Origin: Nannocystis sp.
GTDB lineage: Bacteria > Myxococcota_A > Polyangia > Nannocystales > Nannocystaceae
NCBI RefSeq assembly: GCF_016717175.1
Contig: NZ_JADKFZ010000004.1
DNA length: 64,000 nucleotides
Strand: one strand, 5' to 3'
This document shows, piece by piece, positions 2,088 to 9,110 of this stretch. The notes beneath the pieces are model-generated. The model had not been told where the DNA came from, searched no databases, and saw only the letters and a list, made by a program, of their open reading frames with translations. Numbering within the stretch: the stretch's first letter is position 1; each line of letters begins with the position of its first letter. The position numbers and the translations under genes are program-made.

Positions 2088-3086
2088 TCACAGCTCGCGG
2101 AGGCCGCGGCGGCGCAGCAGCCACAGGAACAGCGGGGCGCCGAGCAGGCTGGTGAGCACGCCCGGCGGGAGGACGACGTTGGTGAAGGCGCGGGCGAGGG
2201 TGTCGACGAGGAGGACGAGCACGGCGCCGAGCAGGGCGGCGCGCGGCAGCAGGTGGCGGTGACCGGGGCCGCCCTGCATGCGCGCGAGGTGGGGGACCAG
2301 CAGGCCGACGAAGGCGATGACGCCGCTGATCGCCGTGGCGGCGCCGACCAGGAGGCCGACGGCGAGCACGGTGCGGCGGCGCAGGCGGACGAGGTCGACG
2401 CCGAGCGAGGCGGCGACGTCGTGGCCGAGGTGGAGGGTGTCGAGGTCGCGGCGCAGCCAGGCGGCGAGGGCGAGGCCGGCGGCGCAGGGCGGCAGGGCCC
2501 AGGCGAGGTGGATCCACGTGCGGCCCTCGAAGCTGCCGAGGCTCCACTGCATCACGCGCAGGCCGAGGTCCCAGCGCTGGGCGCCGAGGGCGAGGCAGAG
2601 GGTCGCGATCGCGGCGCAGAGGGTGCCGAGGGCGAAGCCGGAGAGCAGGAGGGTGGCGAGGCTGTGGTTGGCGCGGTGGAGGGCGAGGAGGATGACGAGG
2701 ACCAGGCCCGCGCCGGCGGCGGCGAGCAGCGGGGTGACCCACAGGCCGCTGGATTCGGCGCCGAGGAGGAAGCCGATGACGGCGGCGAGCATGGCCCCGG
2801 CGCTGACGCCGAGGACGCCGGGGTCGGCGAGCGGGTTGCGGAACAGGCCCTGGGTGAGGGCGCCGGCGCAGGCCAGGGCGGCGCCGACGAGCGCGGCGAG
2901 CAGGGCCCGGGGTAGGCGCAGCTGCCAGACGATCGCGTCGCGCAGCGGTGGGAGCGGGTCGCCGAGGCCGAGGTGGGCGAGCAGGCTGCGCAGGGCCTCG
3001 CCGAGGCCGACCTCGCCGGGACCTGTCCCGAGGGCCAGGAGCAGGGCGGCGGGGAGGAGCAGGGCGGTGAGGTGGCGCAGGCGCAT
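2088..3086 (-). CDS. btuC: ABC transporter permease, FecCD family (cobalamin/iron-siderophore type)
   Basis: 332 aa with multiple TM helices and FecCD/BtuC-like conserved blocks (GAALACAGALTQGLFRNPLADPGVLGVSAGA..., LVDTLAR...PPGVLTSLLGAPLFLWLL). It is the last gene of the riboswitch-controlled operon. The btuC name is inferred from the B12 riboswitch context. Confidence 0.8.
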   Translation of the reverse strand: MRLRHLTALLLPAALLLALGTGPGEVGLGEALRSLLAHLGLGDPLPPLRDAIVWQLRLPRALLAALVGAALACAGALTQGLFRNPLADPGVLGVSAGAMLAAVIGFLLGAESSGLWVTPLLAAAGAGLVLVILLALHRANHSLATLLLSGFALGTLCAAIATLCLALGAQRWDLGLRVMQWSLGSFEGRTWIHLAWALPPCAAGLALAAWLRRDLDTLHLGHDVAASLGVDLVRLRRRTVLAVGLLVGAATAISGVIAFVGLLVPHLARMQGGPGHRHLLPRAALLGAVLVLLVDTLARAFTNVVLPPGVLTSLLGAPLFLWLLRRRGLREL

Positions 3087-3088
3087 GG

Positions 3089-3120
3089 GGGGGGGGGGGG
3101 GGGGGGGGGGGGGGGGGGGG
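3089..3120. repeat. homopolymeric poly-G tract (~32 nt), probably an assembly or sequencing artefact
   Basis: An uninterrupted G run sits exactly between the btuC start and the btuF stop. A second such tract is at 22874-22920. Two-colour Illumina no-signal reads produce poly-G. Confidence 0.6.
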
Positions 3121-3139
3121 CGAGGCGGAGGTCAGCGGG

Positions 3140-6567: not shown

Positions 6568-6570
6568 GGA

Positions 6571-8807
6571 TCAGGTCTCGTGGCGGGCCGGGGCGTCGAG
6601 CTCGACGCGGAGGGTGGTCCACAGGCTGGTGCCGGGGAGCGGGTAGAAGAAGAAGTCGGAGACGGGGACGGTGATCGCGGGGGCGCCGGCGATCGGCGGG
6701 CGCCAGGTGGTGGTGCGGAGGTTGAAGAGGTTGCGCACCTCGGCGGCGAGGTGGACGCGGCGGGCGAGGTGCAGCTCGACGGCGAGGCCGTGGAGGGCGC
6801 GGCTCGGGACCTCGTAGCGGCCGCTCGGGTCGAGGAAGGTGCGGGCTGCGTAGTCGAAGCTGTAGACCAGGCGCGGCTCGAGATCGGTGCGCCTGGCCTT
6901 GAAGACATGTCCGAAAGAACCTTGCGCGAACAGCTCGTGGCGCGGGCGACCGGGCAGGGGCTGGCCGCGCTGGGAGGGGTCGTCGCCGAGGTTGACGGGG
7001 GCGAGCAGGGTGTAGTTGGCGGACAGGCGGATGTCGCCGCGGAGCAGGCGGAGCGCGGCGCTGGTCTCGAAGCCGGAGACGCGGGCGCGGGCGACGTTCA
7101 CGGGGCGCAGGCTGGGACCGGCCTGCTGCCACTGGATCAGGCGGTCGCTCCACGTGACGAAGCCAGCGGCGTGGGCGTAGAGGGATGTGCGGGCGCGGGT
7201 GAGGTCGAGGATGAAGCCGCCGTCGAGGCTGCTGCCGCGCTCGGGTCGCAGGCCCTCGTTGCCGACGATGTAGCCGCGGTCGCCGAACAGCTCGAGCAGG
7301 CTCGGGGGACGGAAGTAGCGGCCGCCGGCGAGGCGGAGGGAGAGGCCGTGGACGAGGCCGAGGCGGGCGGCGAGGCGCGGGCTGGCGCCGAGCTCGAGGT
7401 GGTCGGCGCCCTGGTCGTTCTGCTCGCCGCTGCCGGCGGGGACGGCGAAGCGGCTGCGGAGGACGTCGAGGCGGACGATCGGCTGGAGGTGGAGACGATC
7501 GCCGGCGAGGTGTTGATCGAGCTGGAGGCCGAGGCCGAGGTTGACGCGCTGGCGGTTGCTGTCGCCCTGGGGCGGCGTGAGCAGGCGCTGGTCGACGCGG
7601 CTCCACTCCTGGCGGGCGTCGGCCATGGCGAGCAGCTGGGCGCCGCGCCACAGATCGAGGGTGAGGCGCGGCGAGAGGTAGAGGTCGAGGTTCCGGGTGC
7701 GCTGGTCGTCGATGCCGAGGCCGACCTCGCCGAGCGGGTCGCGGTAGCGGGTGCGCTCGACGGCGAAGCCGGCGACCAGGTCGATGTGGCCGGGGCGACC
7801 GCCGTCGTCGCCGAGCTCGCGGCGCACCCGGGCGACGCTGCGGGCGACCAGAGTGTCCAGCCTGGTGGCACGCGCCTGCTGGCCGGTGGCGAGGCCGGGG
7901 ATGCCCTGGTGCTTGTTGAGGAGCAGCTCCTGGACGCTGTAGCGCCACGCGCCGGCGCGGCCGTGGACGGCGAGCTGGGCGAGCAGGCGGTCGTAGTCGT
8001 TGTTCTGGCGCCGCTCGTTGCGGTCGTCGCGGGGGTCTTGCAGGGTCTCGCCGAGGTTGTGGAAGCGGAAGTCGCCGGTGGCGCCGGCGTGGCCGATGCG
8101 GAGGTCGAGGCAGGGGCCGCGGCGGCGCGGGGCGAGCGGGAGGGAGGTGCTGGCGCGGGCCTCGCTAGCGCCGAAGGAGCCGAGGCCGAGGACGGCGCCG
8201 AAGCGGCGGCGGGTCGGGTCGCAGCGCAGGTCGCTGCCTAGATCGAGGGCGCCGCCGATCGCCGCGCCGCCGTACGCGACCGGGACCAGGCCGCGGTGGA
8301 TCGTGACGCGGCCGAGGCTGTCGAGCGGGAGGTCGCCGAGGTTGACGACCCCGCCGCTGCCGCCGATCGGGACGCCGTCGAGGAAGACCGACACCTGCTG
8401 GGCTGAGGAGCCGCGCAGCGAGAGGGCGGAGAACTGGCCGAGGCCGCCGAGTGAGCGCACGGTGGCGCCGGCGCTGCGACCGAGCAGCTCGGGCAGGCCG
8501 TCGGCCGGGCGGGCGCCGGTGGGGTTGGCGAGCTCGATGCTGGTGGCGAAGCCGGGGCTGGCGGCGTCCTGCCGGCGCTGGGCGTCGAGGCCGTCGCCGC
8601 GGCCGTGGGCGACGACGGTGCGGTAGGGCGGGCTGGTCTTTGGGACAGGCTGGTCTTTGGGACAGCGGGGCTGGTCTTTGGGACAGCGGGGCTGGTCTTT
8701 GGGACAGGTGGCGCGAGGGCGCGGAGCTCGCGGGTGGTCAGCAGGGCGGCCGCGCAGGCGCACGCAGGCGCGAGGCGCACGCAGGCGACACGTATCGCGA
8801 GCCGCAC
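6571..8807 (-). CDS. btuB: TonB-dependent outer-membrane receptor (BtuB-like), reading frame interrupted inside an N-terminal tandem repeat
   Basis: The plug domain (DGVPIGGSGGVVNLGDLPLDSLGRVTIHRGLVPVAYGG) and barrel are in the frame of ORF 6571..8895. The signal peptide (MRLAIRVACVRLAPACACAAALL) and three VPKTSPA repeats are in the frame of ORF 8238..8807. The two frames meet inside the 21-nt repeat array, where one unit spacing is 17 nt. The gene is downstream of a cobalamin riboswitch. Confidence 0.8.
8633..8707. repeat. tandem array, 4 x CTGGTCTTTGGGACAG core (spacings 17, 21, 21 nt) inside the btuB 5' coding region
   Basis: Direct reading of the sequence: ggctggtctttgggacag / gctggtctttgggacagc / ggggctggtctttgggacagc / ggggctggtctttgggacag. 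It encodes VPKTSPA repeats and belongs to the dispersed CTGTCC/GGACAG motif family. Confidence 0.9.
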
Positions 8808-8949
8808 GTAGGCGACGCGAATGAAGCTGCGGCGCCCGTGGGCGCGCGAGGGCGTGGGGGTCGTGGGGACGATGGCGAGTGAACTCCCGTCTCACCGAGG
8901 TCGTCCGCGCCGGTGGGCGCAGGGACCTGCCGCCTTGTCAGGGCGGGGG

Positions 8950-9110
8950 AGCGCAGGGCAGGTCTCCTGGCTAAAGGGTCATCCTCGATCGACGCCTTCC
9001 CACGGTCCTGCGGGTGCAGGAGCTCGCAGTGGCTGCGTGTCGATCTCGTCGCCTCTCACAGTGGCGGGAGCCGCGTCGGTGTTGCACCGACTTCCCTCTT
9101 TCGCGTCCTG
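8950..9110 (-). ncRNA. cobalamin (AdoCbl) riboswitch in the btuB leader
   Basis: The minus-strand read gives ...aGGGAAgtcGGTGcAAcaCCgacgcggctCCCGCCACTGTgag...GGGAAGG...AGCCAGGAGACCTGCC. This matches the conserved cobalamin-riboswitch core (GGGAA..GGTG.AA..CC...CCCGCCACTG) and shows a perfect B12-box (AGCCAGGAGACCTGCC) at 8958-8973. It sits ~150 nt upstream of the btuB start. Confidence 0.85.

Follow-up and report, generated by a model that had tools for sequence, protein, structure and literature searches.

BtuG1, BtuG2 and BtuG3 of Bacteroides thetaiotaomicron (DUF5074, PF16819; PDB 3DSM, 8BAI, 8OKV, 8BMX, 8BLW) are the closest described counterparts of two lipoproteins encoded in a predicted vitamin B12 operon of Nannocystis sp., on a 64-kb stretch of contig NZ_JADKFZ010000004.1 (72% G+C; the whole stretch is called the window below). 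The BtuG proteins combine an N-terminal lipoprotein anchor with a seven-bladed-type beta-propeller, and a cobalamin riboswitch controls their genes, which lie beside that of a B12 TonB-dependent receptor. BtuG homologues were stated to be exclusive to Bacteroidetes (Wexler et al. 2018; PMC6143338), and virtually all pairs of a TonB-dependent transporter (TBDT) and its lid with conserved proximity, BtuB-BtuG included, were located in Bacteroidota (2023 preprint, 10.1101/2023.03.17.533168). In the available part of a 2026 review, BtuH and BtuJ alone were discussed beyond Bacteroidota (PMC13616437), and these sources treated lipoprotein-assisted B12 capture as an adaptation of gut Bacteroides (PMC6143338; 10.1101/2023.03.17.533168; PMC13616437).

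Further systems resemble the locus in part. BtuK1/BtuK2 of B. thetaiotaomicron (PDB 9S6C, 4R5O) are likewise a tandem pair of paralogous propeller lipoproteins, encoded in a B12 locus under riboswitch control; BtuK1 binds B12 and BtuK2 does not (PMC13616437). The btuB-btuFCD system of Escherichia coli also has a cobalamin riboswitch before its outer-membrane receptor, and it shares the BtuF-type protein and the FecCD-type permease. It lacks an accessory lipoprotein, however; its genes are scattered, the BtuF protein is soluble, and btuD lies alongside btuC. XusB (DUF4374) is a xenosiderophore-binding lipoprotein whose own context is iron, not B12, and which has no riboswitch.

Nannocystis is assigned to Myxococcota (taxonomy look-up). 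The genes of its operon are co-oriented on the minus strand of the window, in the order RF00174 riboswitch, TonB-dependent receptor, lipoprotein 1, lipoprotein 2, BtuF-type lipoprotein, and FecCD permease. With high confidence, lipoproteins 1 and 2 are assigned by profile comparison as remote, divergent homologues of BtuG that are connected to it through intermediate sequences, and the operon assignment is held with the same confidence. They belong to a large, unrecognised branch of BtuG in other phyla, which shares the fold, ancestry and gene context of BtuG and probably its role. The branch is set apart by the chemistry of its pocket, by alternative anchors and, in Nannocystis, by a tandem duplication.

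Homology of the two lipoproteins to BtuG

Lipoprotein 1 has a signal peptide with the lipobox LLSAC (Cys15), followed by a Thr/Asp/Ser-rich disordered linker of ~55 residues and then by the beta-propeller. Its sequence is 100% identical to a protein recorded for a Nannocystis sp. metagenome-assembled genome. Lipoprotein 2 starts with the ATG at 5281 and carries the lipobox LVLAC. The two had been described as paralogues in a sequence-only reading of the window, which agrees with an alignment of 343 residues at 38% identity (E 7e-65). When both lipoproteins and 42 close relatives were scanned with Pfam and NCBIfam, only low-complexity "Mucin" noise in the linker was returned, and PF16819 (DUF5074) did not match the window proteins or their close relatives even at E 10. 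The same reading had guessed "propeller-like repeats" from the sequence and had proposed a fold comparison with BtuG. AlphaFold (AF2) models built on family alignments now support that guess, with a predicted local distance difference test score (pLDDT) of 87.1 for lipoprotein 1 and 85.7 for lipoprotein 2 and a predicted template modelling score (pTM) of 0.84 for both. In each model a disordered linker follows the lipobox and leads into an all-beta domain with strands arranged as expected for seven blades of four strands each; the predicted fold is a beta-propeller, consistent with the seven-bladed fold of BtuG. In Foldseek searches against the PDB, BtuG1/2/3 accounted for 16 of the top 17 matches of lipoprotein 1 and for all top 16 matches of lipoprotein 2.

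The sequence link to BtuG came from the wider family and emerged only once distant members were added. When a profile of 42 close relatives was searched against 1.84 billion cluster representatives, 1,950 proteins passed E ≤ 1e-3 and 985 of them also E ≤ 1e-10, so that the lipoprotein family is large. Its distant members show the motifs TTDFSTG, VVNR.G.DN, NPQ, DLS.FADADG.PE, QRLD, PG.R.FD and TGLPP. A profile of 34 of these distant members (A4) was compared with all PDB sequences: the nine best matches were all BtuG1/2/3 (E 3.5e-9 to 1.4e-7), and the next propeller, a non-BtuG one, appeared at E 0.1. Pfam DUF5074, the BtuG family, was weakly matched by 6 of the 34 (best E 1.3e-5). For direct alignment, a BtuG profile was made from a full BtuG3-like sequence rebuilt from a Bacteroides locus (L084) plus BtuG fragments. 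Aligned with A4 by hhalign, it gave a probability of 98.2% (E 3.8e-14) over 320 columns, which cover the whole propeller and align the lipobox Cys. Against mixed profiles mastered by the window proteins, the probability was 96.5% for lipoprotein 1 and 96.9% (E 1.3e-10) for lipoprotein 2, while the identity of BtuG to the window proteins is only 10-16%.

Since the A4 profile hits BtuG specifically and the hhalign alignment extends over the whole propeller, the lipoproteins are not convergent look-alikes. The BtuG-like accessory module of the sequence-only reading is thus upheld in its resemblance to BtuG, while the convergent origin that it had suggested is ruled out by the PDB matches of A4 and the 98.2% hhalign probability, which indicate divergent homologues. 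In addition to its low identity, the window pair differs from BtuG in its long disordered linker, in a Myxococcota-specific Cys pair (C76, C224) and in its tandem diverged paralogues. As for the rebuilt BtuG3-like gene (5001-6068 of L084, a metagenome contig), an in-frame stop replaces the codon of Gln150, and the gene was called as two genes, of which the first alone bears the DUF5074 label. Only short fragments were retrieved when the protein collection was searched with 95 aa of BtuG2.

Gene context, anchoring and predicted pocket

Scanning one genome per species gave 217 confirmed relatives, and the best 80 loci were kept. Besides Nannocystis and further Polyangia, these loci, from at least five phyla, include Latescibacterota, Eisenbacteria, Gemmatimonadota, Acidiferrales, Methylomirabilota and bacteria that are unclassified. 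Of these groups, Latescibacterota fall within the Fibrobacterota-Chlorobiota-Bacteroidota (FCB) group (taxonomy look-up), of which Bacteroidota are also part. Rfam scans placed a same-strand RF00174 upstream in 16 of 17 distant and 12 of 16 Myxococcota loci, and a thirteenth Myxococcota locus has the riboswitch downstream on the opposite strand. With a riboswitch profile built from these Rfam-found riboswitches, 68 of the 80 loci had one upstream on the same strand; for 7 of the other 12 the upstream sequence in the locus is shorter than 2 kb, and in L020 the riboswitch lies downstream on the opposite strand. In 77 of the 80 loci, the gene immediately before the propeller gene, on the same strand, encodes the receptor. 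Neighbouring genes of the relatives encode BtuF, FecCD, a PduO-type cobalamin adenosyltransferase, CbiZ and CobD. Thus, through its riboswitches, its adjacency to the receptor and its B12-specific neighbours, the propeller family is tied to B12 salvage wherever it was found, in the arrangement of btuB-btuG in Bacteroides. The sequence-only reading had named membership in a widely conserved, unrelated family as a finding that would speak against it. The family is indeed widely conserved, but it is linked to B12 throughout, and this link strengthens the relation to BtuG. A combined-term literature search did not find BtuG named together with these other phyla, and the literature retrieved by the term DUF5074 was not on B12 uptake.

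Two other gene layouts were observed among the relatives. In Latescibacterota and Gemmatimonadota (L021, L025, L028, L030 and many others), the B12 receptor has an N-terminal CarboxypepD_reg domain and is followed by a propeller with a type-IX-secretion tail, a PduO-type adenosyltransferase, BtuF and BtuC. The second layout (L041, L044, L061, L070, L078, L081) runs from BtuF through the receptor, the propeller and CbiZ, then usually to CobD.

The anchor of the propeller varies within the family. A lipobox was present in 99 of 174 near-full-length members and missing in 39 of the 51 members with at least 450 residues, which are forms with a C-terminal extension. This extension contained FlgD_ig in 18 and Por_Secre_tail in 9 of the 34 distant members, and the protein of L021 (Latescibacterota) passes the NCBIfam cut-off for a type IX secretion sorting domain (28.1 vs. 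23 bits). Because alternative anchors are carried by one propeller, and one of them is the sorting domain of a secretion system that delivers proteins to the surface, the extracellular side is favoured, which argues that the family would work outside the outer membrane like BtuG. For a myxobacterium, surface exposure is proposed with lower confidence.

The corrinoid site was located by alignment with BtuG2, in which Glu55, Gly56, Gln93, Asn107, Ser131, an Arg, Trp149, Ser195 and Gln219 contact the corrin amide side chains, and hydrophobic contacts include Trp194 and Trp272 (PMC10404256; 10.1101/2024.02.16.580637). In all three hhalign comparisons, S131-P132-R133 of BtuG2 aligned with the family-invariant N-P-(Q/H), W194-S195 with a near-invariant Q-R, and the N107 region with (N/H)-R. 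E55 and Q93 fall 1-2 residues from the invariant D92 and D119, and W149 has no conserved counterpart in the family. By alignment, conserved polar residues stand at corrin-amide-binding positions of BtuG, and their identities have changed (N for S131, Q-R for W194-S195, D for E55). A pocket conserved in position and altered in chemistry fits ligand binding at the BtuG site, and we hold with moderate confidence that the propellers would bind corrinoids.

Among the fetched loci, tandem copies of the propeller gene were seen in Nannocystis genomes and some close relatives (L001, L003-L010, L013), and other Polyangia have a single copy. In a distance tree the paralogues formed two clades, with the single-copy proteins nearer the second type. 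Proteins of the second type, lipoprotein 2 included, retain every family-invariant residue, and lipoprotein 2 is the likelier high-affinity binder or lid. Lipoprotein 1 lacks the TGLPP motif, has the lowest identity to distant members (24.0% vs. 28.6%) and forms the longest branch in the tree; it is a faster-evolving duplicate, probably with a modified role, be it a relay, a binder of a different corrinoid or a structural partner. The pair BtuK1/BtuK2 (PMC13616437) is a possible precedent for such a division of labour.

Operon layout, probable translation start and uptake genes

The features of the operon are as follows, each with the evidence on which it was assigned.
8940..9149, minus strand: cobalamin riboswitch aptamer RF00174 with the B12 box GCCACUG (cmscan, Rfam).
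8871..8896, minus strand: putative expression-platform/initiation element GGUGAGACGGGAGUUCACUCGCCAUC (recurrence in the Nannocystaceae/Polyangia loci examined).
6571..8873, minus strand: TonB-dependent outer-membrane receptor with a putative BtuB-like role (Pfam Plug and beta-barrel; context).
8630..8707, minus strand: four tandem 21-nucleotide (nt) copies of CTGTCCCAAAGACCAGCCCCG in the N-terminal coding region of the receptor (Tandem Repeats Finder (TRF), motif scan).
5284..6567, minus strand: lipoprotein 1, 427 aa, remote BtuG homologue and derived "first-type" paralogue (profile, model, tree).
4042..5281, minus strand: lipoprotein 2, remote BtuG homologue and ancestral-type "second" paralogue (profile, model, tree).
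3140..4045, minus strand: BtuF-type periplasmic binding protein, predicted lipoprotein (Pfam Peripla_BP_2, LLAAC).
3087..3120, minus strand: run of 34 C on the coding strand that abuts the btuC start codon (TRF, direct reading).
2088..3086, minus strand: BtuC-type ABC permease of the FecCD family, last gene of the operon (Pfam FecCD).

A cobalamin riboswitch with a B12 box ahead of a TonB-dependent receptor had already been recognised from the sequence alone, and cmscan found RF00174 over the full model (1-189) at 98.4 bits (E 2.4e-23), well above the gathering score of 31.5. It was the sole RNA family in a whole-window Rfam scan, and the orthologous loci carry a cobalamin riboswitch too. The operon previously delimited at 2088-9110 was recovered, but its end has to be moved, as the riboswitch reaches 39 nt past 9110. 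Beyond the riboswitch, a conserved element of the form GGUGAGACGGGAGU(N2-4)CUCGCCAUC was seen in the window and in L001, L003-L010, L013 and L014, and CUCGCCAUC ends it in the majority of the Nannocystaceae/Polyangia loci examined. A Shine-Dalgarno sequence, GGGAG (8884-8888, minus strand), lies 10 nt ahead of an AUC (8871-8873, minus strand). Because the reading frame is kept solely 3' of this AUC in the loci that were read through (window, L001, L003-L010, L013), and because L002 has AUG at the equivalent position, this non-canonical codon is probably the start of the receptor. A scan for promoters and terminators came back empty, with no terminator-like site after the aptamer, and the post-aptamer region showed no significant folding (z -1.4). 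The riboswitch most likely acts by controlling translation initiation.

The receptor open reading frame (ORF; 6571-8895) matched Pfam Plug (3.8e-12) and TonB_dep_Rec_b-barrel (2.8e-29). Compared with PDB sequences, its plug region matched E. coli BtuB (4e-9) and B. thetaiotaomicron BtuB1 (2.3e-5), while the receptor scored 71 bits against the 599.7-bit cut-off of the NCBIfam TonB-B12 equivalog TIGR01779. For this reason it is filed as a TonB-dependent receptor, and its BtuB-like role is inferred from context. Comparison of its three frames with orthologues showed that the frame breaks near 8650, inside the 21-nt tandem repeats (TRF: period 21, 3.9 copies, score 128), of which the last spacing is 17 nt.

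The second frame break is apparent in lipoprotein 2, as a 1-nt frameshift in a run of eight C (4105-4112). As read, lipoprotein 2 and btuF form a single 756-aa ORF (3140-5410, minus strand), and they are separate genes, as the sequence-only reading had it, only after frame correction. Deleting one C of the run gives lipoprotein 2 the C-terminus …TGLAPYAATPLP, which matches its 78%-identical orthologue P0062, and produces a TGA stop that overlaps the btuF ATG (ATGA). Two independent contigs with lipoprotein 1 end before this site, and a look-up with btuF for an independent assembly that spans it found none. With the corrected frame, the receptor and lipoprotein 1 are 3 nt apart, lipoproteins 1 and 2 are 2 nt apart, and lipoprotein 2 and btuF share a 4-nt ATGA overlap; translation of the operon is therefore probably coupled.

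The BtuF-type and FecCD assignments were borne out by matches to Peripla_BP_2 (PF01497, 4.8e-14; lipobox LLAAC) and FecCD (3.7e-83 over 311 of 311 profile positions). The reported absence of an ABC ATPase also holds: the signature LSGGQ is absent from all frames of the 64 kb, and no ATPase gene was found in the N. punicea operon, so that the ATPase of BtuFCD must be encoded elsewhere. The only ABC/P-loop-type Walker-A motif of the window, GMSGAGKST at 19387 on the plus strand, points to a RapZ-like NTPase and not to the ATPase of an ABC transporter. No Shine-Dalgarno sequence occurs at the 34-C run before btuC, where btuF and btuC of N. punicea overlap by 4 nt. A second long run (40+10 C on the minus strand) lies at 22872-22922, and these tracts may be unusual real sequences or assembly artefacts.

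Proposed mechanism and competing explanations

Taken together, we consider it rather probable that this is a corrinoid (vitamin B12) scavenging operon in which BtuG-homologous propellers hand corrinoid to the receptor. At high intracellular cobalamin, the riboswitch would most likely keep translation of the first gene from starting, and the tightly coupled genes downstream would follow. In the expressed state, both lipoproteins would be placed beside the receptor at the outer membrane. The central cavity of each propeller would hold the corrin ring through residues at the BtuG contact positions, and the lipoproteins would pass the ligand on to the receptor. The TonB-dependent receptor would carry the corrinoid across the outer membrane, and the lipid-anchored BtuF would hand it to the BtuC permease, powered by an ATPase encoded elsewhere. 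A broader interpretation is put forward only tentatively, namely that the propeller is an old, widespread BtuG-type partner of B12 receptors across FCB-group phyla and Polyangia instead of a Bacteroidota invention. Myxobacterial lipoproteins would then reach the surface by an uncharacterised route, and the Nannocystis pair would serve one receptor, either as a two-component device for capture and relay or as a heteromeric lid.

Several observations limit the scavenging reading or weigh against it. In the fold ranking the margin of BtuG over generic seven-bladed propellers was small, so fold alone is indecisive. With a Nannocystaceae-only profile, the link to BtuG was not significant (hhalign E 0.086) and neither PDB nor Pfam gave a match, so the homology of the window proteins rests on intermediates. 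In the pocket, the placement of BtuG2 Gln219 differs between alignments, and the contact chemistry is unlike that of BtuG, with Asp, Arg and Asn instead of Glu, Gln, Ser and Trp and with the equivalents of Trp194 and Trp149 absent. Lipoprotein 1 has Asn for Asp92 and Asp250, two family-invariant Asp residues. In the assembly, frameshifts are apparent in the receptor and lipoprotein 2 genes. Moreover, no Bacteroidota-type export signal was established for the window proteins, and Myxococcota are not known to possess the lipoprotein export signal of Bacteroidota or type IX secretion, which makes surface exposure in Nannocystis uncertain.

This last point bears on where the propellers act. We think it unlikely, though worth weighing, that they form a periplasmic relay, in which the lipoproteins sit in the inner leaflet of the outer membrane and pass corrinoid from the receptor to the lipid-anchored BtuF. 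Lipoboxes on both lipoproteins and on BtuF would suit such a relay, as would the linker of lipoprotein 1, long enough in principle to bridge the periplasmic space, and the fact that an export machinery of the Bacteroidota type is not known in Myxococcota. However, BtuG itself is surface-exposed, relatives in other phyla exchange the lipid anchor for a type-IX-secretion sorting domain and thereby place the propeller outside the cell, and the propeller gene adjoins the receptor gene (in the 77 loci counted above) and not btuF. That the operon is decaying, with real frameshifts in the receptor and lipoprotein 2 and a system that works in relatives and not here, has a similarly small probability in our view. 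Two frame breaks fall within one operon, repeat elements are inserted at gene starts, the poly-C tract ahead of btuC comes without a Shine-Dalgarno sequence, and lipoprotein 1 has lost invariant residues and has the longest branch. Nevertheless, both breaks lie at a homopolymer or tandem repeat, which are typical sites of assembly error, and sister metagenome-assembled genomes (MAGs) have "tig" contig names, typical of long-read assemblies. The sequences outside the breaks are fully conserved with no stop codons, and an identical lipoprotein 1 was found in two independent short-read assemblies.

The remaining alternatives concern what the propellers do and what they bind. Propellers can be imagined as enzymes, such as a lactonase-like hydrolase or a corrinoid-remodelling enzyme, or as structural partners that bind nothing; we regard this as improbable, since the window proteins have no significant sequence match to lactonase, SGL or NHL, BtuG is their only significant sequence link to solved structures (through the family intermediates), and the invariant positions coincide with the ligand-contact positions of BtuG. 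Least credible of all is a non-corrinoid ligand, siderophore or haem, which the sequence-only reading had held out as an analogue of XusB/DUF4374 and for which HmuY would be another model. This suggestion was dropped on context and ranking: the operon and 68 of the 80 related loci have the cobalamin riboswitch, B12-specific genes for adenosyltransferase, CbiZ and CobD are co-located in the family, and BtuG outranks XusB in both fold and sequence. XusB had the lower structural score and no sequence similarity to the window proteins, which do not qualify as members of DUF4374.

The scavenging reading gives hundreds of "hypothetical proteins" a testable function. The 1,950 cluster representatives form an unannotated sister branch, of which none of those scanned reaches a Pfam family for its propeller, and which is tied to cobalamin riboswitches in phyla of soil, sediment and wastewater. 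High-affinity surface capture of corrinoids may thus be a general strategy of environmental communities. The natural exchange of a lipid anchor for a type-IX-secretion sorting domain is useful evidence on topology, and the question is raised by which route a myxobacterium would expose such a lipoprotein. Culturable carriers of the operon exist in N. exedens DSM 71 (L005), N. pusilla (L007) and N. punicea (L001).

Some minor features were observed around the operon. A dispersed repeat, CTGTCCC-N3-G-N-CCAG, had 19 matches in the window against 0.73 expected, mostly on the minus strand, and can fold as a hairpin (CTGTCC..GGACAG). Its positions include 8633-8707(-), 4001-4037(-), 2066-2081(-), 3023-3038(+) and 23980-23995, and further copies lie at 47952-47967(-), 48292-48355(-), 50771-50786(-), 56711-56726(-) and 56834-56849(-). 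Copies are often located at or just past the start of a gene, and some form tandem arrays with a period of 21 nt. A role as a B12-related operator was ruled out, because copies adjoin unrelated genes (ATP-grasp, GlgB-like) and none occurs in the orthologous operons of other Nannocystis; the repeat has the appearance of a dispersed element specific to this lineage. A 351-aa ORF (461-1516, minus strand) without a Pfam match lies just downstream of the operon, and the N. punicea operon is likewise trailed by a gene of similar size (357 aa, 14979-16052 of L001).

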